Shown here piece after piece: positions 1-20,336 of a stretch of 32,000 nucleotides of DNA (its first letter is position 1; each line of letters begins with the position of its first letter). The stretch covers positions 1 to 32,000 of the forward strand of contig CP010424.1 in assembly GCA_000830275.1 (NCBI GenBank). Reading direction: 5' to 3'. A program made the translations under genes and the position numbers. This DNA is from an archaeon GW2011_AR10. Its GTDB lineage: Archaea > Iainarchaeota > Iainarchaeia > Iainarchaeales > GW2011-AR10. The notes under the pieces are model-generated. The model was given only the letters and a program-made list of their open reading frames with translations, made no database searches and was not told where the DNA came from.

Positions 1-7
1 ATGAAAA

Positions 8-619
8 ATGAATAAGAAAAAGATTGTGATAATTAGTTTGTTTTTTTTGTTTTTTATTGGATTTTCGAACAGTGTTTTTTCGCTGCCTGCTTCGGATTAT
101 AATTTTTTAGAAGTGATCAATGAGAGGGTTGTTGAGTCAAATGGTGTTAGGTTAGAAATAATTGATCAGACTCTCGGTTCTTTTATTTTATCCAATGAAG
201 GAACAGAAACTGCTCATTCCGTGTCAATTAGTCTTAGGATACCAGTAGGTTCAGATTCCTATGAGCGGGAATTTGGAAGTGGAATTACAATTGCTCCAAA
301 TGATTCAAAAGTATTTCAGATTCCGACTGGCTATTTTAAAACTGAGGTTCCGTCCACTCTTAAAATAACTTCAGAGGAAGGAGCAATAACTGAATTGTCA
401 ATAATAAATTCAGGTGAATCTTCTAGGGAGTCTTACATTGATCCACTTTATTTGTATGCTGTTTTTATATCACTCGTTTTTGGTGCAATATCGTTTTTTT
501 TGTTGAAAAAATATTTTCCAAAAACAAATCAAAAGTGGTTTTACCTTATTGCCCTGGCTGTTATAATTATTTCAATTATGGTGTTATTTTTGTTTATTGT
601 GAGTCTCATAACATTATAG
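8..619 (+). CDS. Hypothetical secreted/membrane-anchored protein
   Basis: 203-aa ORF with ATG start. The N-terminus is hydrophobic and signal-like (IVIISLFFLFFIGFSNSVFS), and there are two hydrophobic helices at the C-terminus. It lies 12 nt upstream of the large surface-protein gene on the same strand. Confidence 0.55.
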   Translation: MNKKKIVIISLFFLFFIGFSNSVFSLPASDYNFLEVINERVVESNGVRLEIIDQTLGSFILSNEGTETAHSVSISLRIPVGSDSYEREFGSGITIAPNDSKVFQIPTGYFKTEVPSTLKITSEEGAITELSIINSGESSRESYIDPLYLYAVFISLVFGAISFFLLKKYFPKTNQKWFYLIALAVIIISIMVLFLFIVSLITL

Positions 620-631
620 TGGGGTATCATA

Positions 632-3553
632 TTGAGTTACAATAAAATAATAGCGAATGGAAAAATAATCCTAGTTATTTTATTTATTTTATTTTTTATC
701 AGTTTTTCTTTTGCTTTGCCAATAACCGTTACGATTGACCCTCTAAATGTAGTTCCTGAGGCTGATGAAACAAATAATTCCAAAAATTTGAGCCCAAATG
801 TTGTGGAAACGGGGGGCATCAATATTCTTTATGTTCCTGTAGACTGGGCTTATTATGGTGACTCATTTGAGCGTGTTTTTGTTCCTCTGGTAAAAGATCA
901 AAATTCCTTTATGTTTGCAACATATCCTTTTTCTGGAGATAATTTTAGGTCAAGAATAAGTATGCGGAATTTGGATTTGGGTCTTCGAGAAAATCAGAAG
1001 TTATCGCCTATTGAAATTTTAGTTATTTTGAAGAGATTAAATAGGGAATACTTATTGGCTGGCTCTAATTATGATAAAATAGTTGGAGTAGTTCCTGGTT
1101 TTTGGTTTTCTTTTCATTACATTGGCTCTGAAGGCGTTACCAGTTTTTTATTTCCAAACGTTGCCTTGGTTGATGCTGCAACGACTATCTCAACATCTCA
1201 TGAAGTAGGGCATACTTATGGTTTGTGTGATGAATACAATTTTCTTACGTGGAATATACAACATAAATGGTTTTTATGTCCTAATGCGTTCCCATCTAAT
1301 TGTGAACAGGATTTATTTCGCTCGGACGCCTATTGTCCAGGAAGCATAGATACAACTGGTTATCGGGTTGAGTTGGCAGCTGAAAGAGTTCCTTTTGTTC
1401 GCAAATTTTCTTTACAATATTTTGATGAAGCTGAAGCTGATAGGGATGACCAAATACAGCACTCATCTGCTGAATGCACTGAAATAACAGAGATTAATGG
1501 CCAATTTGTGTTTGAGTGCACTTATTATTACCATAATTTCATGGGTAGAGCTGGGGAAACCTATAACTGGGTTAGTGATCAAACCTACTCTCATTTGCTT
1601 TCAACTCTTTCTGATGAGTTTTCCAAGAAAGCAGCGGATTTGAAGGATCTTTCTCCGTCAAATGTTGTTTTTGTAAGCGGTTTGGTTGACTTGCAAAATA
1701 ATGTGGAATTAGATGATTTTTATATTTTGCAGGGAGAGCCATCTGAAAATATTGTTTTGGGGGATTATTCTTTAAAACTTCTGGATTCTTCTGATAACAT
1801 TTTGAGTGATACCCCTTTTTCAGTTTCATTTACTTTACTTTCTAACCCCCCTGTTGATTTGAATACTGCTTTTTTTGGTTTGGCTGTTCCTTGGGTTGAA
1901 GGAACTAAAAAGATTGCTATTGATGTTAATGGTTTAAGGAAAGCCGAGCGCCTTGTTTCTTTGAATGCTCCGGTTGTTTCTGGGGTTTCTGTTGGAAGAG
2001 GAGTTGTTGTGAGTGGTTTGAGTACTATTGAGTGGGATGCTTTTGATGTTGATAGTGATTCCCTAAGCTTTGTGTTGCAGTATTCTGATGATGGTGGCGC
2101 TTCGTGGAAGCCATTGGCGATTGATGTTCGAGGAAATTCTTTTGTGTGGAACGCGGATTTTGTTGATCCTGGGGAGAATTTTGGGGTTAGGGTGATTGCT
2201 ACTGATGGTGTGCTTACTGGTGAGGGTGTTAGTAATGTTTTTACTGTTCGCGCGCCTGATATTGGTGTTTCTACCAGTGAATGGGATTTGGGTGAGTTTG
2301 ATGTTTTTGGTGATGGTGTTTCGCAGGATTTCTTTATTACTAATGAGGGTAACGCTGATTTGGTTGTGAGTTCAATTGTTGTTTCGGATTCTTTGTTTGT
2401 GGTTTCCGGCATTTCTTTGCCTTTAACGCTTTCTCCTGGTGTTTCCCAGAATTTCATTGTTTCGCTTCCTTCTTTTTTTGGTGGAAAGGAGAAGGTTGTG
2501 TTGGGGGAAATTGACGAGAACATTGTGGTTGTTTCTAATGATCCGAATGAGTTAATGAAGGTAATTGATGTTGTTGGTGAATTAGTGCAAATTACTCCTT
2601 TTCCGAGCGTTGAGTTGGTTGCTCCGTTTGAAGCAAAGCTGAATGAGCCTTTCACTGTTGTTGCAACTGTAAAGAATGGTGAGGGCACTTTGAGGGATGC
2701 GAGTGCAGCGCTAGAGCTTCCTGTTGGTTTGGTTTCTTCTAGTCCTTTGGTTGTTGATTTGAATGCTGTTGGTGCTGGAAAGGATTTGAATGTTTTTTGG
2801 AGTGTGGTTGCTTCTCAAAACGGCTTGCATGATGTGAGAGTTAATGTTTCTGGTGGAAACTTTGCTCGTGTTTCTTCTGAGTTTTTTGTTTCTGTTACGA
2901 ATGTGCAGTTGTCTTCTGTTGAGTTGCCTCCTGGCTTATCTTCTGGTGAACCAATTGATGTAAGCGTGCAGGTGCGGAACTTGAATCCTGGTGTTAGTTA
3001 TTCTGAGCCTGTTGTTTTTGTTAAATTATTTTTTCCTGATGGTTCTTCTAATGAGGTTAGCAAAACTATTTCGTTGCTTGGTGCTAACAAAACTGAATCG
3101 TTGCAATTCTTTTTGGGTTCTTCGTTGTATAAGGGCAACCATGCTGTTGAGGTTGCGGTTTTGAGGGATTCTGGTGTTTTGCTGGATTCTGAGTTAGTGT
3201 TTTTTGAGTTTGATGGGAATGGCTCTGTTGATTTATCTCCTACTCAGATTCTTTTTAATTCCAGTGATTTGGTTGTTGGGAGAAAAGTTTTTTTTGATTC
3301 TGGTGTAAAAAATTCTGGTTCTCATGGTTCGGGTTTGTTTAATGTCAAGTGGTTTGTGGATGGAATTCAAGAAGGTTATGGTAGTCATTTAGGGGTTGGT
3401 GCTGATACAACTGTTTTGAATGGCAACTCCCAGTTCTGGTGGGTAGCGCAACCTGGCACGCATACTATAAAGTTTGTTGTTGATGCTAACAATCGTGTGG
3501 CTGAATCCAACGAGGAAAACAATGAGGTTTCTGTTGTTGTTATGGTTCCTTAA
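632..3553 (+). CDS. Large secreted surface protein: metzincin-like zinc protease module (HEVGHTYGLCD) + Asp-box + Ig-like/CARDB domains
   Basis: 973-aa ORF with a TTG start and an N-terminal hydrophobic anchor (IILVILFILFFISFSFA). It has an HExxHxxGxxD motif at nt 1199-1231 and an Asp-box SDDGGASW at nt 2084-2107. The C-terminal domains are CARDB-like (NSGSHGSGLFNVKWFVDG...HTIKFVVDANNRVAESNEENNE). Confidence 0.75.
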   Translation: MSYNKIIANGKIILVILFILFFISFSFALPITVTIDPLNVVPEADETNNSKNLSPNVVETGGINILYVPVDWAYYGDSFERVFVPLVKDQNSFMFATYPFSGDNFRSRISMRNLDLGLRENQKLSPIEILVILKRLNREYLLAGSNYDKIVGVVPGFWFSFHYIGSEGVTSFLFPNVALVDAATTISTSHEVGHTYGLCDEYNFLTWNIQHKWFLCPNAFPSNCEQDLFRSDAYCPGSIDTTGYRVELAAERVPFVRKFSLQYFDEAEADRDDQIQHSSAECTEITEINGQFVFECTYYYHNFMGRAGETYNWVSDQTYSHLLSTLSDEFSKKAADLKDLSPSNVVFVSGLVDLQNNVELDDFYILQGEPSENIVLGDYSLKLLDSSDNILSDTPFSVSFTLLSNPPVDLNTAFFGLAVPWVEGTKKIAIDVNGLRKAERLVSLNAPVVSGVSVGRGVVVSGLSTIEWDAFDVDSDSLSFVLQYSDDGGASWKPLAIDVRGNSFVWNADFVDPGENFGVRVIATDGVLTGEGVSNVFTVRAPDIGVSTSEWDLGEFDVFGDGVSQDFFITNEGNADLVVSSIVVSDSLFVVSGISLPLTLSPGVSQNFIVSLPSFFGGKEKVVLGEIDENIVVVSNDPNELMKVIDVVGELVQITPFPSVELVAPFEAKLNEPFTVVATVKNGEGTLRDASAALELPVGLVSSSPLVVDLNAVGAGKDLNVFWSVVASQNGLHDVRVNVSGGNFARVSSEFFVSVTNVQLSSVELPPGLSSGEPIDVSVQVRNLNPGVSYSEPVVFVKLFFPDGSSNEVSKTISLLGANKTESLQFFLGSSLYKGNHAVEVAVLRDSGVLLDSELVFFEFDGNGSVDLSPTQILFNSSDLVVGRKVFFDSGVKNSGSHGSGLFNVKWFVDGIQEGYGSHLGVGADTTVLNGNSQFWWVAQPGTHTIKFVVDANNRVAESNEENNEVSVVVMVP
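3007..3553 (+). repeat. 547-nt direct repeat, copy A (3' end of the surface-protein gene)
   Basis: It aligns colinearly without indels to 9615-10161. Both copies end exactly at a TAA stop. Runs of about 70 and 100 nt of perfect identity are interrupted by mismatch clusters. I count 21 amino-acid substitutions over about 181 aligned residues. Confidence 0.9.
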
Positions 3554-3595
3554 TTTTTAATGGAGCAGGCTTTTTGATTCTCTTAAGCGGAAAAA

Positions 3596-3620
3596 ACAAT
3601 CAATTTTTTTGGTTGATTTT
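3596..3620. terminator. Intergenic hairpin + T-run between convergent genes (motif ACAATCAA-T7-GGTTGATT)
   Basis: The arms AATCAA (3598-3603) and TTGATT (3613-3618) flank a T-run. The element sits between the stop of the + gene (3553) and the stop of the - gene (3625). A near-identical motif occurs at 4463-4485. Confidence 0.5.
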
Positions 3621-3624
3621 TAGT

Positions 3625-4086
3625 TTATTGGACTTTTTTCAGTGCTTCTTTATAGAGTTCAATGCTTATTCTGAACCCGTTTTTGACTAGTTCGTTTAAT
3701 AGTTTTGAAAACTCTTTTTTGGTTATGAGGTTTTTTTCTCTGGCCAAAACAAGTAAGCCTAGTGTTCCAATGGGTTTTAAGCCAAAGGATTTGGCTGCAA
3801 TTCTGGCTTTTCTGTCATCCAAGAGCACTTTGCTTGTTTTCAGTTGCAGTGCCAATAGAATGGCTGCTGTTTCGCCTTTGCCCAAGGAAATATCTTTTTT
3901 TAGAAAAAATTTTTTCACTTCAATGAACGCTGAAGCCTTGATTTCGTTTCCTGCAGTTTCTTTTACTGAAACCTCAAAGAAAACCTGTTCCGGCATAACA
4001 ATTTTAGTGAAAAGTTTTTCAAGCAAGTCAAGCCGTTCAAGCTTAATGAAAAAAATGAGTGGAGAAGCATTTGAAACAACAATCAT
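3625..4086 (-). CDS. PIN-like nuclease toxin, DUF3368/COG2405 type
   Basis: 153 aa. The pattern VVSNASPLIFFIKLERLDLLEKLF...GKGETAAILLA...VLLDDRKARIAAKSFGLKPIGTLGLL is typical of DUF3368 PIN-like proteins. It overlaps the upstream antitoxin gene by 4 nt. Confidence 0.75.
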   Translation of the reverse strand: MIVVSNASPLIFFIKLERLDLLEKLFTKIVMPEQVFFEVSVKETAGNEIKASAFIEVKKFFLKKDISLGKGETAAILLALQLKTSKVLLDDRKARIAAKSFGLKPIGTLGLLVLAREKNLITKKEFSKLLNELVKNGFRISIELYKEALKKVQ

Positions 4087-4403
4087 TTGAATTCCTTTAA
4101 GTTTTCAAGGTCTTCCATGAACTGTTCTTCAGAATAGTTGAGGTAAGCGTCATACTTTTTCGTTAAGTCAATCATTTCCCACAGGTTTTTCCCTGCAATT
4201 TCAGCAGCTTTTCCAAAGCTTACTTTACCTTCTTTGTACAGTTTAAAAGCATGCTCTGTTTTAAGCTCCTCCAAGCTCATACGAATCATTTTTTTCAGAA
4301 GAGCAGAGCGGTCTAGGTCAAGCTCTCTTGCAAGGCTCTCAATTTCCTCAGTTTCCTTTCTTGAAATTCGGGTTGAAACAACAGCTTCCTGCATAAAAAC
4401 CAT
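4083..4403 (-). CDS. UPF0175-family antitoxin
   Basis: 106 aa. KLYKEGKVSFGKAAEIAGKNLWEMIDLTKKYDAYLNYSEEQFMEDL matches the UPF0175 signature. It has an ATGA overlap with the PIN gene. Confidence 0.7.
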   Translation of the reverse strand: MVFMQEAVVSTRISRKETEEIESLARELDLDRSALLKKMIRMSLEELKTEHAFKLYKEGKVSFGKAAEIAGKNLWEMIDLTKKYDAYLNYSEEQFMEDLENLKEFK

Positions 4404-4462
4404 TTCTTGTATACAATAATTTCAACTGTATACAAAACTCTTTTTAAATGCAGTGGTCAACG

Positions 4463-4485
4463 ACAATCAACTTTTTGGTTGATTT
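4463..4485 (-). terminator. Hairpin motif ACAATCAAC-T5-GGTTGATTT downstream of the channel-like gene
   Basis: The 7-bp arms AATCAAC/GTTGATT are perfect, with a T-rich loop. The element lies 21 nt beyond the stop at 4506. It is a second copy of the 3596-3620 motif. Confidence 0.5.
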
Positions 4486-4505
4486 GTGTTTGTGAGGTGA
4501 TATTT

Positions 4506-5378
4506 TTAACTGACTTTTGTGGAAATTGACTTCTCTGCAGATATTCTTCTGCTGATTTTTTCGCATTCCGTTCTGATTAACTCGATGTCTTTAACCGCAT
4601 TTTCTGGTTTAGGTTCTGAGAGTCGTTTTTCTATTAATTTGGTTATAGTTTGTGAGTAGGCTGTGATATTGTTCAGGTTTTCCTTTGAGTAGTAGTTCAG
4701 CCAGGGCTGACTTGACCGTTCAAATCGTTTTATTCCTTTTGAAATCTGGAGAAGTGTTATTTTCAGGGAGTGAAGCAGTGCGCTCAGGACTTCTTCATCA
4801 AATTTTTTGTCCAGAAATGAAACCATGTAATTATGGTATAAAAACAGCGAACAGGCGCTCATCTTAGAAGAAATGATTTTCAAGTAGTTTTCAGAAGTCT
4901 TATTTTTAATGTGCTGAGCAATCTCTTTTTTTACTTCCAAAATATTACCGGGTTCAAGAGCTTTTTTTGATAATTTGATGAAACCTGCTCTCTGTTCAGC
5001 CCAACTATTCCTATACTCCCTGAGCTTCTGTCTATACTGGCCTTCATACATTTTTTCCGTCATTTTGCTGCTTTTGGCTCCAACAAGTTTTGATAGGAAC
5101 ATCCCAAACAACACGAGCCCTGCCAGAACCTCAAAGGTAATGAGCAGCTTTGAAAACCTGTTTACTGAATAATCCCCTATACAGGAACGGGTTATCGTAC
5201 ATAAGCTGAAATAGAATGATTCTCCTAGAGAAATAGCTGTTCCAGTCTCATTAATTACCCCGTTTTCAGGGGAAATAGAAGAAATACCGAAAAACAAGAG
5301 GGAAAAAGAGAGATAAGAGATAAATAGGAGTGTAAGAAACTGGTTTACTGAAAAAGTAACCATATATTCCCAGCGCAT
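4506..5378 (-). CDS. 2-TM ion-channel-like membrane protein (K-channel pore fold with degenerate filter) + about 190-aa cytoplasmic helical domain
   Basis: 290 aa. The layout is TM1 (FLTLLFISYLSFSLLFFGI), a pore-helix-like SLGESFYFSLCTIT, then RSCIGDY in place of TVGYGD, then TM2 (LLITFEVLAGLVLFGMFLSKLV). The remainder is charged and helical. Confidence 0.55.
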   Translation of the reverse strand: MRWEYMVTFSVNQFLTLLFISYLSFSLLFFGISSISPENGVINETGTAISLGESFYFSLCTITRSCIGDYSVNRFSKLLITFEVLAGLVLFGMFLSKLVGAKSSKMTEKMYEGQYRQKLREYRNSWAEQRAGFIKLSKKALEPGNILEVKKEIAQHIKNKTSENYLKIISSKMSACSLFLYHNYMVSFLDKKFDEEVLSALLHSLKITLLQISKGIKRFERSSQPWLNYYSKENLNNITAYSQTITKLIEKRLSEPKPENAVKDIELIRTECEKISRRISAEKSISTKVS

Positions 5379-5628
5379 GTTAGAATAAAAACAACTTACT
5401 ATTTAACCTTTTTTTTGTGCAAATTCAGGCTTTTTTGGTTAATTCCAGTGGCAGCAACTGCACGCTTCTTCAAATTTAGGCAGAGTATCATTACGGAGCA
5501 AAGAAATCCCTTATTCCCATTTAAAGCAAAAAACGCCTTTTGTTGTGAGACAAATGTCTCAACAACTATTGTCGTAACTGCCAATGCTTTTTGATTTTTT
5601 TTGGTTGTTTTGCTATTATCATAAAGTT

Positions 5629-5636
5629 TTTATATT
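5629..5636 (+). promoter_or_regulatory. TATA-like box upstream of the KaiC-like gene
   Basis: TTTATATT is centred about 38 nt upstream of the ATG at 5670. Confidence 0.3.
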
Positions 5637-5669
5637 AGACTTCCTTTATTGTATTGGTGTTTTTCTTTG

Positions 5670-6440
5670 ATGGATAGGGTTAAAACCGGCATTGAGGGCT
5701 TGGATAAGGCTTTGAATGGCGGCATTCCTTACAGGAACGTTGTTTTGGTTTCCGGTGGCGCTGGAACAGGTAAGAGCACTCTTTGCCTGCAGTACTTGGT
5801 TAATGGTGCCAAGCTTTATGGTGAAAAGGGCCTTTACATTTCCACTGAGCAGAGCCGCGAGGAGCTTTTGAAGGCTGCTGAGGGCTTTGGGTGGGATTTG
5901 GAGGAGCTTGAGCGGCAAAAGCTTTTGAGGATTGCTTACTTTGACGTTGTTGGAACAGATCATTTCCTTGAAAAAATTTACAAGCAGTACACTGACTTCA
6001 ATCCTAGGCGGGTTGTTTTGGATTCCTTGACCACTTTCACTGATTCTCTGCTTGTTTCCAGTGCAAGGGATGACACTGCCTTCTCCATGGTGCAGGTCGC
6101 TGAAACAGTTTCACCAATCCCTAAAACCGAAAAAATCGTCGCAAAAACCCTATTATACCAGCTAATGAAAAAACTTAGGCTGTTTGATGCGACGATTATA
6201 CTGACGTCGGAGTTGCTGGAAGAATCCAAAGGATTAAGTGCTGATGAAATAAGTGAATTCATTTGTGATGGGGTAATTGAAATGCATTATTTGGGGATAT
6301 CGGGTGCTGATTCAAGAACTTTGAGGGTTAGAAAGATGCGTTATTGCAATCATAACAAAAGTTATATCCCTTATGAGATGACAAGCCAGAAGGGAATTAT
6401 TGTTCATGAAGAAGAATCCATGGATGTTTTAATGAAGTGA
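5670..6440 (+). CDS. KaiC-like/RecA-superfamily ATPase (single domain)
   Basis: Contains GIEGLDKALNGGIPYRNVVLVSGGAGTGKSTL, with Walker A at nt 5754-5780, and the Walker B-like RRVVLDSLT. The ATG at 5670 is preferred over the TTG at 5649 given in the ORF track. Confidence 0.85.
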   Translation: MDRVKTGIEGLDKALNGGIPYRNVVLVSGGAGTGKSTLCLQYLVNGAKLYGEKGLYISTEQSREELLKAAEGFGWDLEELERQKLLRIAYFDVVGTDHFLEKIYKQYTDFNPRRVVLDSLTTFTDSLLVSSARDDTAFSMVQVAETVSPIPKTEKIVAKTLLYQLMKKLRLFDATIILTSELLEESKGLSADEISEFICDGVIEMHYLGISGADSRTLRVRKMRYCNHNKSYIPYEMTSQKGIIVHEEESMDVLMK

Positions 6441-6444
6441 TATA

Positions 6445-7077
6445 ATGTATGGCTTACTTTCCAAATTAATAATAGGCGGAAAACTTAAATTTGAGCCAGG
6501 TAGAATTACTGCATTTAAGGATCCATTTGTTTTGTTGGATTTATATTCTCTTAGAGAAATGACTAATGATGCAGTAGAAGGGGGTATTCATAATATTTCA
6601 AATCTTTATTTTTATGGTTGGGCATACGGATATTATGCAACAAAAAATATTGTAAAATTATTGATGCTTAAAAAATTTGAAGAGAGATATAAAATTTCTA
6701 TGGATATAATAGGGCTGCTTGGTTTTGGAGATTACCAAACATTAAGTTTTAAGCAAGCTGACCATGCAAAATTTAAAGTTTTAAAAGACCCATTTCCACT
6801 ACTTTATTATCCACATGACAAATTTGTATGTCACTATATTCGCGGGATGGAGGCTGGTGGAGGAACACATGTTCATGAAGCTTTAATGGACAATATTGAG
6901 TTTGAATGTGCTGCGATTAATGGTCAATATTGTATCCATGCCAATTTAAGCCAAGAAAATATAGATAAAGCGGATCAAAAGCTTGTTTCTTCGCAGCTAG
7001 ATAGGGCATACATTAAAACTAGGCAAAAAAAGCTGATCGAAGAGGCTGGAGATGATCCTTCGAAATTTGGATTGTAG
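6445..7077 (+). CDS. V4R (4-vinyl-reductase-like) small-molecule-binding domain protein
   Basis: 210 aa, starting 4 nt after the KaiC-like stop. The C-terminal pattern FVCHYIRGMEAGGGTHV...IEFECAAINGQYCIHANL fits the V4R signature C-x3-G...E-x-C-x3-G-x2-C. Confidence 0.55.
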   Translation: MYGLLSKLIIGGKLKFEPGRITAFKDPFVLLDLYSLREMTNDAVEGGIHNISNLYFYGWAYGYYATKNIVKLLMLKKFEERYKISMDIIGLLGFGDYQTLSFKQADHAKFKVLKDPFPLLYYPHDKFVCHYIRGMEAGGGTHVHEALMDNIEFECAAINGQYCIHANLSQENIDKADQKLVSSQLDRAYIKTRQKKLIEEAGDDPSKFGL

Positions 7078-7115
7078 TTTTATTATATCGCTACTATTTT
7101 GGGAGGTTTAATTTT

Positions 7116-8036
7116 TTGGAGAGGTTTTTTTCAGACTTGGCAAAGAAAAGTTTTTTTTTAAATTTAATAGTTTTGGGTAGACCTTGGAATGGCATTATAA
7201 TTGGCTTATTTTCCATACTTGGTTTCATTTTTTTAGGAGGCAACGATTTATTAACTATTTTAGTTCTATTTTTTTGCTTTTTTCTTCAATATTTTGCTGG
7301 TACAACCTTCAATGATTTGTATGATTTTTATTCTGACAAAATAAATATGCCTTATAGGCCTTTAGAGTCTGGTGTAATAACCAGTAATGAAGCAAAAATT
7401 CTTGCTATTACTTTATATGTTATTTCTCTGACCTTTTCTTGGCTTTTTTCATTTTATATTTTTTTAGGGGTATTGGCTTTTTTCATTTTGAGTTTGCTTT
7501 ATTCTATAATTCCTTTTAGACTTGTGAGTAGGGGTTTTCTAGGAAATTTAACTTTAGCCACAGTTACTATCTTTATTCCCACTATGACTGGTGCAATCGT
7601 AGCGTCTCAAAGTATTTTTTTACCTTTTGAATTTGTTCTATATGTTTTATATTTTACTTTATTTTTTGCATTTTTCAGCATATTAAAAGATTTTAAAGAT
7701 GTAACAGGTGATTCTAAGTCCGGCAAAAAAACTTTTGTGGTTGTACATGGCATAGATTTAAGTGGTAAAATAATGATTTTTGGCACGGTTTTATTTTTTT
7801 TATTATCTTTATTTTATTTGCTTGAGTTAGTACTTTTGGATTATGTTGTTCTATTGGTTTCTTTGTTTTTTTTGGTGGGTTTATTAATTTTTGAGTTGAA
7901 AGTTTTTGATAAGAGAAATTCTGCAGATAATTTTTATTTACTTTTTTCGAGGACTAGAATATTAATTTTTGTATATGTCTTGCTGGTAATCATTTTGGTA
8001 TATTCGAGCTTTTCCATTGCCCTTACTTTGCCCTGA
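7116..8036 (+). CDS. UbiA-family prenyltransferase (DGGGP-synthase-like)
   Basis: 306 aa, polytopic. It has NDLYDFYSD (nt 7311-7337), then YRPLESG, and a second Asp-rich motif KDFKDVTGDSKSGKKT. The TTG start is preceded by GGGAGGT at 7101-7107. Confidence 0.85.
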   Translation: MERFFSDLAKKSFFLNLIVLGRPWNGIIIGLFSILGFIFLGGNDLLTILVLFFCFFLQYFAGTTFNDLYDFYSDKINMPYRPLESGVITSNEAKILAITLYVISLTFSWLFSFYIFLGVLAFFILSLLYSIIPFRLVSRGFLGNLTLATVTIFIPTMTGAIVASQSIFLPFEFVLYVLYFTLFFAFFSILKDFKDVTGDSKSGKKTFVVVHGIDLSGKIMIFGTVLFFLLSLFYLLELVLLDYVVLLVSLFFLVGLLIFELKVFDKRNSADNFYLLFSRTRILIFVYVLLVIILVYSSFSIALTLP

Positions 8037-8051
8037 AGTTAGTTCACCTTA

Positions 8052-9140
8052 ATGTTTATATTTAGAAATTTAGTTATTCTAGTAGTGGTCATTGTGCCTA
8101 AGAAAAATTTAGAAAGCCTAGATATTGGATATGATATAGTAGTAATTGGTGCAGGGGCGGCTGGTTGTTTTTTGGCAAAAAATATTTCTTCAAATTATAA
8201 GGTGCTTGTTGTAGATTCTAGGTCTTTGCCTAGACATAAGGCATGTAGTGGCATTGTAGTCAGACAGGGGAAGGAACTTTTAGAGCCATTTAGACCGCCT
8301 GAAAGCATTTTTTTAAAGCCTAAAGAGATTCATATTGTCTATTCTGATTGGACACATAAATTAGAAAGGGAGATACAGAAGGGGTTCTGGAATACTGACA
8401 GAGAGAAGCTTGATAAGTGGCTTTATGAACTTGCTTTGAAAAAAGAAAATGTTGATATCATAGACAATGCAAAATTAATCGATTTCAATTATGCTGAAGA
8501 TAAAAAACATATAGTGGTTGTTTTAGAATCAAATGGTGGTGTAAAAAATATTATAAGTAATTATTTAGTTGGATGTGATGGTGCTCTTTCTACAGTGCGA
8601 CAAGTGTTAGGAGTAAAGCCGCCTAAAAGATATGTTGCTATTCAAGAGTTAATAAAGGCTAAGGGCGTTAATAAGGCGTATTTCATTTTTGACGAGGAAA
8701 TAACTGATTGGTATGCTTGGGTAATCCCAAAAGGCGAGGTCATTGATGTTGGTGCGGCTCTAGATCCATTTAAAGCAAGGGAAAAATTCGCTCAGTTTAA
8801 AGAAAAGGTAAAACAAAAGTTTAAAATTTCGGGAAAAGGCTTTTTTGATTCGGCTATGTTAACTCGACCACAATCTGTAAAAGATTTAGTGTTGGGTGAA
8901 AAAAGAGTTTTACTTGCTGGTGAAGCTGCCGGTCTAATAAGCCCTAGCAGTGGTGAAGGGATAAGCTTTGCATTAAGAAGCGCTAAATTTGCTGCAAATG
9001 CTTTTAATAAAAACTTTAAAGATGCATTATCTGAATATAAAAAAGAGGCTAAACCATTAGTTGAAAGACTAAATAATAAATTTTTGAAATCTACTATAAT
9101 AAGTAATAAACAGAAAAGAATTAATCTGATGAGAGAATAG
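8052..9140 (+). CDS. FAD-dependent geranylgeranyl-reductase-family oxidoreductase
   Basis: Contains the GxGxxG motif YDIVVIGAGAAGCFLA, plus GCDGALSTVRQ and LLAGEAAGLISPSSGEGISFALRSA. The start may be internal (GTG near 8094). Confidence 0.8.
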   Translation: MFIFRNLVILVVVIVPKKNLESLDIGYDIVVIGAGAAGCFLAKNISSNYKVLVVDSRSLPRHKACSGIVVRQGKELLEPFRPPESIFLKPKEIHIVYSDWTHKLEREIQKGFWNTDREKLDKWLYELALKKENVDIIDNAKLIDFNYAEDKKHIVVVLESNGGVKNIISNYLVGCDGALSTVRQVLGVKPPKRYVAIQELIKAKGVNKAYFIFDEEITDWYAWVIPKGEVIDVGAALDPFKAREKFAQFKEKVKQKFKISGKGFFDSAMLTRPQSVKDLVLGEKRVLLAGEAAGLISPSSGEGISFALRSAKFAANAFNKNFKDALSEYKKEAKPLVERLNNKFLKSTIISNKQKRINLMRE

Positions 9141-9177
9141 CTTTTCTTACTTGTTTAGGAAAAAACAATTAATCACC

Positions 9178-9462
9178 TTAGTATTCTTTTCTATAATTTT
9201 CGGCCAATTGGTTGTTTTTTGTCACTATAATGCTCATGTTTCCTTTGTATTCTCTCATTAAGTACATGTGTTTTCCCAAGCCAAATTCAACTACTTTTTT
9301 TGGAAGCCTGTTTTGTATTGCCCAGAGTTTTCTAAAAGTACTTGGGTAGGTTATTTCTGCAATGTAATCTCCTAAAATCACTTTATCGTTTAGTGATGGG
9401 GCGCACTTTATTCCAAACATAGTTTCTTTTGCTCCATATGCTTTCAGTGTTTCTCCAAACAT
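9178..9462 (-). CDS. Hypothetical protein
   Basis: 94-aa ORF, AT-rich like its neighbours, convergent with the reductase gene. I recognise no motif in it. Confidence 0.35.
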   Translation of the reverse strand: MFGETLKAYGAKETMFGIKCAPSLNDKVILGDYIAEITYPSTFRKLWAIQNRLPKKVVEFGLGKHMYLMREYKGNMSIIVTKNNQLAENYRKEY

Positions 9463-9489
9463 TTTATTGTCTTATGAATTGCTTGGTAA

Positions 9490-10161
9490 GAAACATTCAA
9501 TCCAAATTTTTTTCCGTTCACGTATCCTGTTGTGGCAGATATAGATGCTGATGGATATAATGAGATTATTGCTGGCTTTAATTCAGGTTTTGTTTATGCT
9601 TTTAATGGTAATGGGCCTGTTGTTTTTGTTAAATTGTTTTTTCCTGATGGTTCTTCTAATGAGGTTAGCAAAACTATTTCGTTGCTTGGTGCTAACAAAA
9701 CTGAATCGTTATTGTTTTCTTTGGGTTCTTCGTTGTATAAGGGCAACCATGCTGTTGAGGTTGCGGTTTTGAGGGATTCTGGTGTTTTGCTGGATTCTGA
9801 GTTAGTGTTTTTTGAGTTTGATGGTGGAGGAACTGTTGATTTATCTCCTACTCAGATTCTTTATGATTCTGGTGATTTGGTTGTTGGGAGAAAAGTTTTT
9901 TTTGATTCTGGTGTAAAGAATTCTGGTTCTCATGGTTCTGGTTTGTTTAATGTTAATTGGTTTGTAGATGGAGTGCAGGAAGGTTATGGTAGTCATCTAG
10001 GGGTTGGCGCTGATACAACTGTTTTGAATGGCAACTCTCAGTTCTCGTGGGTAGCGCAACCTGGCGCGCACACGATTTCTTTTGAAGTGGATGCTGATAA
10101 TCACGTGGTTGAATCCAACGAGCAAAACAACTCTGTTTCTGTTCAAGTAAATGTTTCTTAA
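9490..10161 (+). pseudogene. 5'-truncated surface-protein paralog (partial FG-GAP repeat + CARDB domains)
   Basis: The frame is open from the stop at 9487-9489 and starts mid-repeat (PFTYPVVADIDADGYNEIIAGFNSGFVYAFNGNG, an FG-GAP-like motif). There is no ATG, no signal peptide and no SD. The only candidate start is the GTG at 9532. Confidence 0.65.
9615..10161 (+). repeat. 547-nt direct repeat, copy B
   Basis: See copy A (3007-3553). It has the same length and also ends at a stop codon. Confidence 0.9.
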
Positions 10162-10854
10162 TTAGTTTTTTTTCTTTTGGGTTGCAAAGAACTGTTCTGG
10201 TGTGATTGTGCTGCCCGCGTGGCCGATTTGGATGCCTGAATTCACCACTATTTTTAGGCCCTCTTTTTTTGCGAGCTTGCAGAAAACAAGGTCCTCTCCA
10301 AGGTCTTCTCCTGTTTCAGGGTCAACAACCTGAAACGCTTTGTTTAAGCCATATTTTTCGGTTACCTTTTTTAGGGCAGAAAATTTCATGAGCAGGAAGC
10401 CAAAACCTGCAGCGTCAACTTCAAAAACAGCGTTGAAGGGAACCTCGCTCGGCGTAACAAAACCGTCCTTTGTTTGCTTGTAGCAAACAGGCACAATTGG
10501 GGGGCGCTTTGTAACATAAAAGCCTGACACCAAATCAGCCTTGGTTTTTTTCTGCGTCAAAAAAAGCTTTGCAATGTCCTCAACAGTGAAAACCGAGTCA
10601 GAGTCAACCCAAAGCAAAAAATCAACAGGCTCTTTTTTGTTCCTCTCCAGGACGTCTTCAGCGATTTTTCTGCGTGCAATCTGGAGGTAGGTTCCGCGCA
10701 CGCTGGAGAAACCAAATTTTTCAAAGAGCTTGAATGAACTGCTTAGAGCAACAATGAATGAAGTGAAACTGGCAACTGGAACTGACTCATACAGTGGAGT
10801 GCAGTAAACAACGTGCTTTGCCAGCTTTTCAACTTTTTCAGCTTTCTCAGCCAT
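10162..10854 (-). CDS. GT-A fold glycosyltransferase (family-2-like)
   Basis: 230 aa. Contains the DxD-type motif LLWVDSDSVF, plus AAGFGFLLM and GEDLVFCKLAKKEGLKIVVNSGIQIGH. Its stop codon (10162-10164) directly abuts the stop of the + strand fragment (10159-10161). Confidence 0.7.
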   Translation of the reverse strand: MAEKAEKVEKLAKHVVYCTPLYESVPVASFTSFIVALSSSFKLFEKFGFSSVRGTYLQIARRKIAEDVLERNKKEPVDFLLWVDSDSVFTVEDIAKLFLTQKKTKADLVSGFYVTKRPPIVPVCYKQTKDGFVTPSEVPFNAVFEVDAAGFGFLLMKFSALKKVTEKYGLNKAFQVVDPETGEDLGEDLVFCKLAKKEGLKIVVNSGIQIGHAGSTITPEQFFATQKKKN

Positions 10855-10902
10855 AAGAAAACCTTGCTCTCAAAGGTTTAAAAAAAGAGGCATTGAAATC
10901 AG

Positions 10903-10942
10903 GTAATTCCACTGTTTTAAAACAATGGTCTGGTGGAATTAC
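10903..10942. promoter_or_regulatory. Nested inverted repeat in the divergent glycosyltransferase promoter region
   Basis: GTAATTCCAC (10903-10912) and GTGGAATTAC (10933-10942) are perfect 10-nt inverted arms. They enclose the perfect 12-nt palindrome TGTTTTAAAACA (10913-10924). Confidence 0.5.
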
Positions 10943-10981
10943 TGCTGTCAAAAACCGCTAAAAACGTTATGGTTTTATTCC

Positions 10982-10990
10982 TTTAATATA
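10982..10990 (+). promoter_or_regulatory. TATA-like box for the + strand glycosyltransferase (near-leaderless)
   Basis: TTTAATATA is centred about 31 nt upstream of the ATG at 11017. Confidence 0.4.
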
Positions 10991-11016
10991 CCCTGATTTA
11001 TTGGGCGGTTTTTGAC

Positions 11017-11844
11017 ATGGTTTTTATGGAAAACCAGAAGGTTTCAGCCGAAGGCATTTTTTCGCAAACCGCTTTGCAAAACCAAAGGTTTTACGAGGCC
11101 CACAAAATCAAAGATTTTGCTTGGGTTTCCCAAAAGGTTTTGGTTGGCTGCCCCACATCAGAAAAAAAAGAGTACTGCCTTGAAAAATTTGTGGAAGGGT
11201 TGAAGGGCTTAACATACAAAAACTTTGATGTCTGCTTGGAGGACAACTCAAAAGGAAAAGAGTACTACAAAAAACTTCTTGGAATTGCGCAGCAGTGGAA
11301 CAAGGAAAAATTTCCTTCAAAATTTGAAGTGATTTATTCCGGCTTAACCAGCGAGAAAGCAAGGAAAAGGGTTGTTAACGGCAGAAACAAGTTAAGGAAA
11401 AAACTTTTGGGTGAAGGCTATGATTATTTTTTTTCATTGGAGCAGGATGTCGTTGCTCCAGCAAATGCAATTGAAAAGCTTCTTTCAGATGACAAAAAAA
11501 TTGTTTCAGCTGTTTACCTGAACTTGATGCAGGACAAAAGGGTTAATGTTGTTGCATACAGGTTTGATTCCGAGGAGCATAAAAGGAAGGGGTTGATTTC
11601 CCCGCTTGGCTTGCTGAATATTTTGCCGAGCCAAGTGATGGAGGTTGCTGCAACAGGAGTTGGAGCAATGCTAATCCACCGCTCCGTGCTTGAAAAAATT
11701 TCTTTCCGGTATGAGCCAAAAGAAAAAGCCTATGATGACATTTATTTTGCAAGAGATGCAAGGAATGCCGGCTACAAGATTTTTCTGGATTCCTCGCTTT
11801 TCTGCCAGCACTACTTCAAACCGAGTTTTACAAAATACGATTAA
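11017..11844 (+). CDS. GT-A fold glycosyltransferase (family-2-like)
   Basis: 275 aa. Contains VLVGCPTSEKKEYCLEKFVEGL, FSLEQDVV, GVGAMLIHRSVLEKI and DDIYFARDARNAGYKIFLD. It is divergent from the other GT gene. Confidence 0.7.
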   Translation: MVFMENQKVSAEGIFSQTALQNQRFYEAHKIKDFAWVSQKVLVGCPTSEKKEYCLEKFVEGLKGLTYKNFDVCLEDNSKGKEYYKKLLGIAQQWNKEKFPSKFEVIYSGLTSEKARKRVVNGRNKLRKKLLGEGYDYFFSLEQDVVAPANAIEKLLSDDKKIVSAVYLNLMQDKRVNVVAYRFDSEEHKRKGLISPLGLLNILPSQVMEVAATGVGAMLIHRSVLEKISFRYEPKEKAYDDIYFARDARNAGYKIFLDSSLFCQHYFKPSFTKYD

Positions 11845-11918
11845 AAGCATTAATTTTTGTTTGCTCTACTTCTGTAATGAGCTCGTATATTCTGCCTCTA
11901 TTTTCATCATTTTTCGTC

Positions 11919-12305
11919 TTATGCAGTTACTTTTATTTCATTCAGTCTCTTTGGCTTGAGCTTCACAAGCGGCAGTATGAGGATTTCTTTTGTCACGTTT
12001 GGAACAATGTTTTTTCCTTTTTTTTGCAGTTCAACTATGTGGACTTTTTCCAATAGCTCCAAATCTCTTAAAACCGCACTAAGCTGTCTGCCCGTTAGCT
12101 CGCTTAACTTTGTAGCATTTTTTGGTTTTTTGTTCTGAATCAGTCTAATCAACTCAAGTCTTTTCTTTGTGAAAACCTGTGTCATTTCGTCGTCTGACAG
12201 GCTGAGCAAAACACCCCTCCCAGGGTAATTTCCGGGATTTTCGAATACCCTGTTAAGATAGGCTTTTACTGCATTCCATCTTTCATCAGTCATTTTATAC
12301 GCCAT
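11919..12305 (-). CDS. Winged-HTH DNA-binding protein (antitoxin-like, HVO_A0114/TumA-like)
   Basis: 128 aa. FTKKRLELIRLIQNKKPKNATKLSELTGRQLSAVLRDLELLEKVHIVELQKKGKNIVP is a wHTH pattern. It starts 4 nt downstream of a 109-aa partner gene. Confidence 0.5.
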   Translation of the reverse strand: MAYKMTDERWNAVKAYLNRVFENPGNYPGRGVLLSLSDDEMTQVFTKKRLELIRLIQNKKPKNATKLSELTGRQLSAVLRDLELLEKVHIVELQKKGKNIVPNVTKEILILPLVKLKPKRLNEIKVTA

Positions 12306-12309
12306 TTTT

Positions 12310-12639
12310 TCACCCCATTTTCATTCTATCCAAATAATACTTTTTATATCTCTCAAAATTATCTTTTATCTGGTCTAAATAAAAATTGAAAATGTCATTT
12401 AAATTCTTTCCCATCATTGGAATGGGAATTGGCTCCGGTGTAATCCAGTATCTTTGTTCATGCAAAAATCCATGTGCAGTGTCAACCCTGTAAACTTCAT
12501 AAAAAATTTCTTCAATTTTTGTCCTGTAGTTCAAGGCAAACCCTTCCACTTTATTGCTTTCAATCTTGAGTTTTACATCAAGCAAATCTGTTGGAGTTAA
12601 TGGTATTGAAAACTTTTTCCATTTGACCAAGATAACCAC
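12310..12639 (-). CDS. Small protein, possible toxin partner (TumE/DUF6516-like?)
   Basis: 109 aa with a His-containing core YRVDTAHGFLHEQRYW. It has a two-gene TA-like arrangement with the wHTH gene. The family assignment is tentative. Confidence 0.35.
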   Translation of the reverse strand: MVILVKWKKFSIPLTPTDLLDVKLKIESNKVEGFALNYRTKIEEIFYEVYRVDTAHGFLHEQRYWITPEPIPIPMMGKNLNDIFNFYLDQIKDNFERYKKYYLDRMKMG

Positions 12640-12649
12640 ACATAATACT

Positions 12650-12664
12650 ATACATTAAATGTAT
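12650..12664. promoter_or_regulatory. Palindrome ATACAT-TAA-ATGTAT next to TATA-like ATAATATA upstream of the TA-like operon
   Basis: The palindrome lies 11-25 nt upstream of the start at 12639. It is a candidate autoregulatory operator. Confidence 0.35.
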
Positions 12665-12892
12665 ATTATTGTTTTTAAGCCTTTCTGTCCGAATTTTCGG
12701 ACGCTGTCCAGATTTTTGGGCAGAGTCGAAAAACATGTTTTTCATGACAGAATTAGTTCGTATAAATACTTGGCTAATCAGAAGCTCCACTAGTTCTGAA
12801 AAACTGGCGATAACATCTGCCAAATTTCAAGCTATGACTTCATCATCGCCAATTATACAATATAGAAGATGTATTAATAGCGTTTTTGTTTA

Positions 12893-13540
12893 TTATTTTC
12901 TTCTGGCTTTGAAAGGAGGCCTTTTTCTTGCAGGTGGCGCTTTTTGTGCTGTTTGCCTTCTCAGAAAGAATTTTGCAAATTTGGAGGAATGACTTCTGTC
13001 CCTCGTTGTTCTCCATTTTAAGTATTCTTCAAGAGTAAGCTCAGCCAAAGTTTTGTTTAGCCCTTTTGGTTTGAAAACTAGCCACAGCTCTGAAGTAACA
13101 AACCTTTTCTTAAGGCCTTCAATATTGCCTCTTGGTTCAGTTGCTAATTCGCCTTCGCTTCTTGATTCAAAAAAAATTGGTTTGGGGCTACTTCCATCGT
13201 AATAAACAAGAACGTGTCTAAATTCGCATTTTCTTGATTTTCCTTTTACCTTTGCAAGTATTCCTTGAATGCCTATTTTCTTTAACTCTCTATGTACAAG
13301 GGACCCGGGATAACCACCTAATGCCTCGATGAAAAAACCGCTGTCTTGGGCGATACACGGTTTTTTAAGTTTTTTATAGGCAGCAACCACCTTTTGCCGT
13401 GCTATTTCCCTAATATCTTGAATTGCTGGTTCAGCAATAGCAAAATTTGCCTGAACAACCTCTATTCCCTGTTCTGATAAAGCCCTTTTTACTTGATTGA
13501 ATCTCCCTTTGTTAGTGGTTGCGAAATAAACTTTCTGCAT
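12893..13540 (-). CDS. Non-canonical purine NTP pyrophosphatase (Ham1/ITPase family) with a basic C-terminal tail
   Basis: Contains KVYFATTNKGRFNQ and CIAQDSGFFIEALGGYPG. The ATG at 13540 is preferred over the TTG at 13549. The last ~30 aa are Lys/Arg-rich. Confidence 0.8.
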   Translation of the reverse strand: MQKVYFATTNKGRFNQVKRALSEQGIEVVQANFAIAEPAIQDIREIARQKVVAAYKKLKKPCIAQDSGFFIEALGGYPGSLVHRELKKIGIQGILAKVKGKSRKCEFRHVLVYYDGSSPKPIFFESRSEGELATEPRGNIEGLKKRFVTSELWLVFKPKGLNKTLAELTLEEYLKWRTTRDRSHSSKFAKFFLRRQTAQKAPPARKRPPFKARRK

Positions 13541-13621
13541 ATCATACAACTTCTATATTGTGCTTTTGTTACTTACCTCATCATCGCCTAATGCATTGTA
13601 GTTTAGGATTTAACGACTTGA

Positions 13622-14248
13622 TTAATCAACTACTACGCGAGCATCAACAGCAGTAACGCCTTTCGCTGAAGCAATCAATGGGTTTATGTCTAGTTCCCTG
13701 ATGTTTTTTTCTTTCATTAGGAGCCTGTTCACCTTCAATAAGTCTTTTTCAATTGCTTTTATGTTCACGCCTTTTTTGCTGCGAAACCCAGCCAAAATAG
13801 GGTATGCCTTTATGCCTTGCACCATTTCCCTTGCATCCCTTACAGTAATGGGGCAAACCCTAACAGTGTAATCCTTGAATACCTCTACGAATATGCCGCC
13901 TAAGCCGAACAGGATTGTGGGGCCGAACTGTTCATCGCGCTTTCCTCCAATGATTATTTCCTTGCCCCGCACCATTTTTTGCACTAAAACTCCTTTGAAA
14001 CCCCTCAATTTTCGCATTCTGGCAAAGGCTTTCCTTGCCCCTGCACTGTTTTCAATGTTCAAGGCAACCCCGCCTATATCTGTTTTGTGGCTGATTTTGG
14101 AGGAAATTAGCTTCAATGCCACTGGAAAACCCAGTTCTTCCGCTGCCCTTGCAGCCTCTTCTGCAGTGCCTGCTTGGCGTGAAGGAGCAAATTGTACGCC
14201 GTACTTTTTCACGAGTTTGATGGATTCGGTAAGGCTAAGCAATTTCAT
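13622..14248 (-). CDS. ATP-grasp domain protein, ADP-forming acetyl-CoA synthetase beta-subunit-like
   Basis: 208 aa. Contains FPVALKLISSKISHKTDIGGVALNI, GVLVQKMV, GGKRDEQFGPTILFGLGGIFVEVFKD and RELDINPL. Confidence 0.7.
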   Translation of the reverse strand: MKLLSLTESIKLVKKYGVQFAPSRQAGTAEEAARAAEELGFPVALKLISSKISHKTDIGGVALNIENSAGARKAFARMRKLRGFKGVLVQKMVRGKEIIIGGKRDEQFGPTILFGLGGIFVEVFKDYTVRVCPITVRDAREMVQGIKAYPILAGFRSKKGVNIKAIEKDLLKVNRLLMKEKNIRELDINPLIASAKGVTAVDARVVVD

Positions 14249-14323
14249 TTGTGCACCAGAATTATTGGGAAATGTAGGTATAAAAACCTGTTGTTTGAAT
14301 GAATCCTTAAGAGGTTTTTAGGA

Positions 14324-18237: not shown

Positions 18238-18359
18238 AATTCTCCGTCTGTAGGGATGATTAATTTTGATTTGTCTTTGGGGTGGTTGGCTTGCAACTCT
18301 TCTGAGATGAGTTCTCATATTACTGTTTTATGTGATATATAGAATAAAAAAGATAACCA

Positions 18360-20161: not shown

Positions 20162-20336
20162 AACATTTCAAGCATCCTTTGGCCCTTAGAGCTTTATTAG
20201 GGCGATAAAAACTTATCCTCTGCAAGAATTTTAAAAGCATGTTTTTTTGCTTAATTCTTAGTTAATAGGGGTCATTAGCAGAACCATTAAATATTCCCTA
20301 AACCTTATGTTTGGTATTGAGTGGAATGGTGCTTAC

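Follow-up and report, generated by a model that had tools for sequence, protein, structure and literature searches.

Archaeon GW2011_AR10 (AR10) belongs to the Diapherotrites, a DPANN lineage, and its genome is distinct from that of Ca. Iainarchaeum andersonii (PMC8561730). Here, we focus on a 32,000-nt stretch of this genome (the window, to which coordinates refer unless a contig is named), and in particular on a long direct repeat formed by the 3′ end of an intact surface-protein gene, termed gene 1, and by a second copy of the same tail several kilobases downstream. Between the copies lie a toxin–antitoxin pair, a channel-like gene and a group of KaiC-like, V4R-like, UbiA and GGR-like genes. 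The account that we consider likely is that the second copy is what is left of a decayed surface-protein gene beside a conserved gene block, and that its tail still undergoes conversion with gene 1 in a hypervariable cell-surface locus.

Organization of the locus

In a repeat search of the whole window, the only long direct repeat is one whose copies lie 6,608 nt apart (table 1). Compared in register, the two copies align without gaps; 56 of 547 nt differ (89.8% identity), as do 21 of 181 amino acids (88% identity). The edges of the repeat are sharp. Upstream of it the sequences match at 3–16 positions per 30 nt, which is the random level, against 24–30 of 30 from 3007/9615 onwards, and similarity ends 2 nt beyond the TAA stop codons (3551–3553 and 10159–10161). 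Divergence climbs in the 5′–3′ direction, from 3.9% through 9.4% to 17.5% in successive thirds, and reaches 29% in the final 93 nt, while the 5′ four-fifths of the repeat (3007–3457) retain about 94% identity between copies. The rate of synonymous substitution (dS) is 0.25 and that of non-synonymous substitution (dN) 0.075, giving a dN/dS of 0.30; these values, together with the gradient, fit old paralogues that have been partly homogenized. An earlier, sequence-only reading of the window had described a 547-nt repeat without indels, both copies ending in TAA, with 21 amino-acid substitutions over about 181 residues, a stop codon at 9487–9489 and abutting stops at 10159–10161 and 10162–10164, and the comparison confirms each of these points, the substitution count exactly.

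Table 1. Features of the surface-protein locus. Positions are those of the window unless stated otherwise.
Feature	Position	Strand	Remarks
828-aa FG-GAP propeller gene	L022 7507–9993, just upstream of the window		two genes before gene 1
203-aa membrane protein gene	8–619		precedes gene 1
Gene 1	632–3553	+	intact 973-aa secreted/surface protein
Hypervariable tract of gene 1	1251–3111	+	right end inside repeat copy 1
Repeat copy 1	3007–3553	+	last 181 codons and stop of gene 1
Toxin–antitoxin pair	3625–4403	−	DUF3368 PIN-like toxin and UPF0175 antitoxin (Pfam)
Ion_trans_2-like membrane protein	4506–5378	−	Pfam 22.5 bits, exactly at cut-off
KaiC-like ATPase, V4R-like (210 aa), UbiA prenyltransferase, GGR-family flavoprotein	5649–9140	+	Pfam, NCBIfam
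orf94	9178–9462	−	C-terminal third of a decayed gene, 270–307-aa family
N-terminal helix-turn-helix-like remnant (LNVSYQAIHKTIKCL)	9456–9512	−	270–307-aa family, frame unlike that of orf94
Predicted single FG-GAP propeller blade (42 aa)	9499–9623	+	in frame ahead of the repeat
Repeat copy 2	9615–10161	+	tail of the putative decayed second surface-protein gene
Glycosyltransferase-like gene	10162–10854	− (convergent)	PHROG glycosyltransferase family, 1.5e-15

The gene 1 product has an N-terminal hydrophobic segment, an HEVGH motif, immunoglobulin-like (Ig-like) domains and a C-terminal CARDB domain (Pfam PF07705, residues 867–967; 66.6 bits against a gathering cut-off of 22.7). Its AlphaFold 2 (AF2) model has a mean predicted local distance difference test score (pLDDT) of 54 overall, with beta-sandwich domains at 70–87 over residues 560–860. 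The repeat starts at residue 793, between the AF2 strands 775–783 and 794–800 of one and the same Ig-like beta-sandwich, where the pLDDT is 75–85. The domain boundary ahead of CARDB is taken from this model, since BLASTP and Pfam are blank there; the idea that the domain before CARDB is a second recognizable CARDB copy was dropped, as BLASTP and Pfam see nothing of the kind.

Full-length homologues of gene 1 have 685–975 aa, and homologues of 36–42% identity lie within a matching three-gene module on the archaeal contigs L087 and L089, where a large adhesin-like protein, a protein of about 200 aa and the gene-1 homologue share the same outline. In AR10 the corresponding genes encode the 828-aa protein (Pfam FG-GAP_3, 1.4e-31, in eight stretches), the 203-aa membrane protein and gene 1, and the three would seem to form a conserved surface module, preceded by an AbiEii gene (L022 6611–7255).

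The second copy of the repeat

Copy 2 is part of a reading frame that is open from 9490 to 10161 (672 nt), directly after the stop at 9487–9489. It contains no ATG; the earliest possible start is a GTG at 9532, which would give a 209-aa product with neither signal peptide nor hydrophobic N-terminus. The CARDB domain is still recognized, at 48.4 bits against the gathering cut-off of 22.7. Ahead of the repeat, and in frame with it, stands a 42-aa piece that matches FG-GAP_3 with E=5.8e-4; its scores of 20.9 and 17.3 bits lie under the cut-offs of 26.9 and 22.1 (PF13517 and PF01839). The piece is 40–48% identical in amino acids to six blades of the 828-aa protein (best 48%, 45% and 42%), and 68% identical in nucleotides to the 828-aa gene across 111 nt. 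By these resemblances it is classed, despite the sub-threshold Pfam scores, as a predicted single-blade fragment of the FG-GAP kind. A reading of the match as mere antisense of the helix-turn-helix remnant of the neighbouring gene was considered and dropped: the hidden Markov model (HMM) of that gene family stops at 9512 (−1.5 bits), and the plus-strand piece also matches real propeller blades.

The remnant therefore has a piece of first-gene type followed by a tail of third-gene type, with strand and order as in the intact module. The junction between blade and tail overlaps a Pro-Val-Val (CCTGTTGTT) compatible with the blade consensus as well as with gene 1, and because it falls between strands 775–783 and 794–800 of the modelled Ig-like domain, the remnant would lack two strands of that domain. 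Blade matches, CARDB tail and missing start bear out the description of a ‘beheaded paralog’ with an FG-GAP-like beginning, and support copy 2 being a putatively promoterless, start-less leftover of a second surface-protein gene, that is, a pseudogene; most likely it is not a functional protein. Scans for sigma-70 promoters and terminators gave background levels, with a model that is inapplicable to archaea. The remnant has no internal stops and a dN/dS of 0.30 relative to gene 1. Such a low ratio is expected if most of the divergence is older than the inactivation, or if the copy is mended by conversion from gene 1.

The stop codon of the remnant directly abuts that of the convergent glycosyltransferase-like gene. 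The last codons of the latter contain a run of eight T (10166–10173) that is found in 24 loci, some of which are repeat retrievals of the same contigs; contigs L003 and L084/L100 have seven T, which shifts the glycosyltransferase-like C-terminus so that it overlaps the remnant stop.

On the other side, the remnant meets a second broken gene. The open reading frame (ORF) orf94, formerly regarded as an orphan, is instead a fragment of a gene of the 270–307-aa family. It is 58% identical to residues 208–303 of a 307-aa gene which, in the relatives L092 and L093, is convergent and directly follows the GGR-like gene. Searched exhaustively against 1.8 billion representative proteins, orf94 gives 14 hits; in 12 of them the alignment is confined to the final 100 or so residues of proteins of 222–462 aa and stops well short of their starts. 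An N-terminal piece of the same family lies in a different frame: searched against 1,606 six-frame pieces of the window, the N-terminal family HMM finds its best match at 9456–9512 (E=6.3e-5; runner-up E=0.47), and this match extends no further upstream than 9512. From the orf94 alignments and the out-of-frame N-terminal piece it follows that the gene has lost its first 40 or so residues and about 120 from its middle. The two truncated genes meet head to head at about 9499–9515, which may be the signature of a deletion that took both 5′ ends and a shared promoter region. A PDB sequence search and Pfam assign no named fold to orf94 or its family.

Gene 1 alleles and probable exchange between the copies

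The locus can be followed on contigs from JGI, ENA and NCBI assemblies of Rifle groundwater samples, with names in the style of IDBA, SPAdes and MEGAHIT. Eleven contigs encode the exact 209-aa product (9532–10161) and 19 the glycosyltransferase-like protein; the DUF3368 toxin is present on at least 23. JGI contig Ga0209211_10004560 (21.4 kb) spans both copies of the repeat with unique flanks on all four sides, and three further contigs, L002, L006 and L016, have their start within copy 1 and extend through copy 2 or slightly beyond it. At the 56 sites where the copies differ, each keeps its own haplotype across assemblies.

Gene 1 itself is hypervariable. When the window is compared with L021/L022, 229 substitutions and 6 gap columns (a two-codon indel) of gene 1 all fall within 1251–3111, and the rest of 1–10613 has one mismatch. 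The dN/dS of this tract is 0.45, with dS reaching 0.67 locally, and only 8 of the 229 substitutions lie inside the repeat. L076 carries a third allele, and L086 is a mosaic of L021-type sequence on the left and L076-type sequence on the right. At least four alleles of gene 1 occur in the population, up to about 11% diverged over 1.9 kb between otherwise identical flanks. A diversity-generating retroelement was rejected as the source of this variation, as the tract of about 1.9 kb holds synonymous and non-synonymous changes alike; no reverse transcriptase was found among the scanned ORFs.

Mosaic haplotypes in different assemblies support recombination between paralogous surface-protein genes, as the sequence-only reading had proposed. 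Over 3103–3462, the L020 remnant has no mismatch to L076-type gene 1, private variants included, and 28 to the standard remnant; over 3463–3553 it matches the standard remnant throughout, against 25 mismatches to gene 1. The remnants of L085 (JGI) and P0017 (ENA) carry a short patch of six gene-1-type substitutions at the equivalent of 3217–3224, flanked by identical runs of only 105 and 30 nt. These transfers (L020, L085), the clearest seen, run from gene 1 to the remnant. Remnant-type bases also occur in gene 1 alleles, at 3310, 3346 and 3430–3458 in L076/L086, at 3028 and 3111 in L021, and up to 3458 in L080/L081; they are few and could be of ancestral origin. The last 90 nt of the repeat are exchanged in no allele. 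This distribution suggests that the copies probably swap sequence by interlocus gene conversion, which would keep them similar on the 5′ side while the tail has drifted out of reach.

The segment between the copies

The list of genes between the copies given by the sequence-only reading stands for the toxin–antitoxin pair and for the channel-like, KaiC, UbiA and GGR genes; its V4R label is matched weakly, the gene having no Pfam match and a weak 38-aa match to a relative’s V4R protein. In L092 and L093 the gene order is helix-turn-helix (HTH), RibBA, two small genes, V4R, KaiC, V4R, UbiA, cis-prenyltransferase (UPPS), GGR-like and the 307-aa gene, with identities to AR10 of 63% for RibBA, 47% for the upstream V4R, 65% for KaiC and 50% for the GGR-like gene. 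AR10 has the same HTH, RibBA and V4R genes upstream of its surface module (L022). It follows from the shared order that the extra genes in AR10 are AbiEii, the 828/203/973-aa module, the toxin–antitoxin pair and the channel-like gene. On this comparison of gene orders, the KaiC, V4R-like, UbiA, GGR-like and 270–307-aa genes are assigned to a conserved syntenic block of the Diapherotrites rather than to the cargo of an island. Homologues of the GGR-like gene at about 50% identity occur in many Diapherotrites metagenome-assembled genomes, and none of those found outside this population is near-identical. The toxin–antitoxin pair is not at the equivalent position in L092 or L089; both of its components match the PADLOC candidate defence system PDC-S70 (3.2e-38 and 3e-08).

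The GC content is 0.27–0.37 at 6.5–9.5 kb against 0.39–0.46 beyond 10 kb, and positions 1–2000 are equally low. At third codon positions (GC3) it is 0.23–0.24 in the V4R-like, UbiA and GGR-like genes, compared with about 0.45–0.5 downstream and 0.46 in KaiC. The L092 orthologues dip likewise, to 0.30–0.39 against 0.5–0.66. Thus the lower GC reported for the segment is real; it need not mark foreign origin, as the first 2 kb are equally low, KaiC is normal and the relative’s orthologues show the same dip, so that recent import is not indicated. The three genes lie 15–25 GC3 points below their neighbours in AR10 (6445–9140) and in the 50–65% identical relative (L092 7824–11044), a stable compositional feature. 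For the UbiA and GGR-family genes (7116–9140) the best models are of ChlG/PRK12884 type and PRK11445/BchP-ChlP type, all below cut-off, and no match was found to the archaeal digeranylgeranylglyceryl phosphate (DGGGP) synthase or reductase equivalogs.

Two scaffolds depart from the common arrangement. L081 has a length of 6,663 nt. Exactly 55 nt are shared between its two ends, and the unique part amounts to 6,608 nt, one period of the repeat. In it, the blade flank is followed by a hybrid repeat and then by the toxin–antitoxin flank; the hybrid is of remnant type up to the equivalent of 3458 and of gene-1 type from 3463, so that the switch spans only 4 identical nt when judged by the alleles of the window. 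This scaffold could be an excised circle or a tandem duplication. It could also be a k=55 graph cycle, provided that gene 1 is present in the sample as an allele resembling the remnant over 3401–3458.

L084 (= L100) carries 3518–9222 at 99.9% identity between flanks that are 3–6% diverged or unrelated. The place of gene 1 is taken, amid unrelated sequence, by a 45-aa ORF with a signal peptide and, at its end, a diverged CARDB tail (RVEEQLEGNKEVSVVVMVP). Positions 9223–10000 are absent; 176 nt stand there instead, followed by the last 160 nt of the remnant and a glycosyltransferase flank that is about 3% diverged. A conserved ESNE motif reads ESRE in this variant. The loss of 9223–10000 implies that the remnant is dispensable and that its decay continues. 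Two parts of L084, read as the reverse complement, match nothing in the window or in any retrieved locus: 1–220 (220 nt) and 5926–6101 (176 nt).

Elsewhere in the window, a pair of winged-helix HVO_A0114 and DUF7718 genes (11919–12639, minus strand) stands between the glycosyltransferases and Ham1; it is absent from L089 and may be another small two-gene module. A 388-aa gene (17152–18318, minus strand; GC3 0.30) lies between NMD3 and an HTH gene, which overlap directly in L089, and looks like another local insertion. An 866-aa subtilase (20307–22907) contains a Kunitz/BPTI inhibitor domain (1.1e-10), a domain unusual in archaea.

Proposed origin and maintenance of the locus

The course of events that we favour can be divided into a two-copy ancestral state, decay and continued exchange. 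The genome would once have carried two same-strand surface-protein units on either side of a conserved core block comprising the KaiC, V4R-like, UbiA, GGR-like and 270–307-aa genes. The ancestral unit may have been the three-gene module (an 828-aa FG-GAP protein, a protein of about 200 aa and a 973-aa CARDB-tailed protein) or a single FG-GAP–CARDB gene. A first deletion would have removed the 5′ part of the right-hand copy together with the 5′ end of its divergent neighbour, the 270–307-aa gene. A second, across the Pro-Val-Val microhomology, would have fused a propeller blade midway into the penultimate Ig-like domain. The survivors would be the 42-aa blade piece and the last 181 codons, the neighbour having lost its middle as well. 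The sharp 5′ edge of the repeat would then be an internal deletion junction, and the 3′ edge at the stop codon the end of shared coding sequence. Conversion patches, some short and some long, would keep the copies about 94% identical over 3007–3457; the final 93 nt, 29% diverged, would have ceased to exchange. Now and then, crossing-over of the direct repeats may yield a 6,608-bp circle or a tandem duplication.

Several observations weigh against this account. Nearly all assemblies have the 672-nt frame of the remnant open and unchanged, and its dN/dS is not raised, which is equally expected of a small protein under selection. No intact second copy was found, either by a homologue search with the remnant, which returned the remnant itself and one fragment, or by a metagenome-contig scan with the repeat peptide, which returned this locus and unrelated CARDB tails of at most 55% identity; neither search turned up the architecture of the remnant elsewhere, and a genome-contig scan with the glycosyltransferase gave four weak bacterial matches. 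The ancestral state is thus a reconstruction. The blade piece resembles no one blade more than the blades plausibly resemble one another, so that a single FG-GAP–CARDB gene would explain it as well as a second module. The near-identity of the segment in L084 between diverged flanks suggests that it could move between backgrounds. Finally, some mosaics come from low-coverage short-read contigs (about 2× for L020) and may be chimeric through identical runs of 62–105 nt; the L085 haplotype is argued to be real because one of its flanks is only 30 nt and because it was recovered from two assemblies.

The remnant might alternatively be kept on purpose, as a promoterless donor cassette resembling pilS or vls or as a small functional CARDB protein. 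Its identity of about 90% to the matching part of the expressed gene equals that quoted for vls cassettes (PMC11499132), its frame is intact in nearly all assemblies with a dN/dS of 0.30, some gene 1 alleles have remnant-type bases, and gene 1 is hypervariable. Yet there is a single copy only (within the 32 kb), exchange is not unidirectional and is clearest towards the remnant, and most of the variation in gene 1 (1251–3006) lies outside the region that the remnant could supply. The remnant also lacks a signal peptide and two Ig-like strands, is largely deleted in L084, and its architecture has no homologue that our searches found. We therefore hold retention by selection to be unlikely. A combined version, in which the remnant persists as a recombination partner, a single cassette that both gives and receives sequence and reshuffles the Ig/CARDB domains at the C-terminus of the gene 1 product, while the repeats loop out or amplify the 6,608-bp unit, seems to us rather improbable; if true, it would provide population-level switching of surface type and gene dosage with no dedicated recombinase.

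Decay of a resident paralogue also has to be set against acquisition. The segment of about 6.6 kb had been described as an accessory island that arose by insertion, and it could be a horizontally acquired element, brought in by Campbell-type recombination between a gene-1-like fragment on a circle and the 3′ end of gene 1. L081 is exactly one unit closed on itself, with its 55-nt end overlap and hybrid repeat; L084 retains the segment nearly unchanged between diverged or unrelated flanks; a toxin–antitoxin and candidate defence pair stands at one end; GC3 is low in three of the genes; and in the distant relative L089 the gene-1 homologue directly adjoins the beta-CASP gene, where AR10 has 10.8 kb (3554–14323). 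This gap, however, runs well past the second repeat, so that the repeats are not the boundaries of an insertion; the region is rearrangement-prone. The core genes are syntenic with RibBA and V4R in L092/L093, which indicates an ancestral neighbourhood, the orthologues there are equally low in GC3, and the GGR-like gene is about 50% identical across the Diapherotrites with no near-identical copy outside the population. Pfam, NCBIfam, PHROGs and PADLOC reveal no integrase, recombinase, transposase or replication gene in 3554–10161, the matches of the KaiC-like protein to DnaB and UvsX families being confined to the P-loop region. No tRNA was found near the segment that could serve as a target, nor any relative in viral-contig scans with the remnant and with KaiC. 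As for the direct repeats, they consist of paralogous coding tails that have diverged, and copy 2 is read as starting at a deletion junction within a gene.

An island and its insertion are thus not supported, and we give acquisition little credence. In the comparison with relatives, the block is syntenic in L092/L093, against an island, and no intact second gene was found. Variants in which recombination between the repeats has removed the segment had been anticipated: no empty site was seen among the 10 distinct contexts listed of 19 contigs with the exact glycosyltransferase protein, and L081, which could instead be a graph cycle, is the one circle-like scaffold. Inversion, also suggested, does not fit, as direct repeats give deletion, a circle or duplication only.

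An assembly origin, in which the joins at the repeats or flanks would be chimeric or one gene present in two strains would have been collapsed, is very improbable even though many contigs break inside the repeats (for example, GCA_013332025.1 is split between DUFG01000004 and DUFG01000008), because different assemblers, samples and sources yield the same order, one contig crosses both copies between unique flanks and three more start within copy 1 as described above, and each copy has its own haplotype at 56 sites.

A decaying paralogue that probably still converts with gene 1 would have consequences for annotation. In this reference-quality genome of a DPANN archaeon, the 209-aa CARDB ORF and the orphan ORF of 94 aa are best annotated as fragments of pseudogenes, and the KaiC/UbiA/GGR-like block is better left without the label of an acquired island. 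The locus also offers a sequence-resolved example from uncultured Diapherotrites of surface-gene alleles up to about 11% diverged in otherwise more than 99.9% identical genomes, with recombination among alleles and between an intact gene and a dead paralogue. Such a pattern is expected if pressure from viruses or from host recognition acts on the surface of small archaea. The locus is a useful illustration and not a new principle.

Comparison with known systems

Integrative elements of the att type share with this locus the direct repeats that bracket a multi-gene segment, and here also one circle-like scaffold of one unit. They differ in that the repeats here are 547-nt coding tails and not short att sites, no integrase was found, and the cargo is syntenic in relatives.

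Silent-cassette systems include vlsE/vls in Borrelia, pilE/pilS in Neisseria and msp2 in Anaplasma (PMC11499132, PMC4534519). As in these, AR10 has a putatively promoterless, partial copy of about 90% identity on the same replicon, a few kilobases away, and exchange is patchy over tens to hundreds of nucleotides. In contrast to them, there is one copy and not an array, exchange goes both ways and is clearest into the pseudogene, and the main variable region of gene 1 is not covered by the copy. There is no host immune system either, and selection would come from viruses or from host-cell recognition. The likeness goes no further than form.

The cell-wall island of Haloquadratum walsbyi has a diversity that is attributed to homologous recombination, and its genes are under purifying selection (PMC4535781). 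Both loci have a cluster of secreted or surface-protein genes and glycosyltransferases, with deeply diverged, coexisting alleles between near-identical flanks. By analogy, we place this flexible island as the nearest known kind. The differences are that AR10 comes from a DPANN groundwater population, that its variable genes flank a conserved lipid/KaiC block, that a decayed paralogue still takes part in exchange, and that few alleles are available, all from short-read assemblies.

Interlocus gene conversion leaves high identity where exchange persists, steep divergence beyond and sharp tract ends. The locus described here does not differ in principle from conversion between paralogues with such a divergence gradient, which is the reading that we favour; paralogue decay with gene conversion in a hypervariable surface locus is an already known kind of phenomenon.

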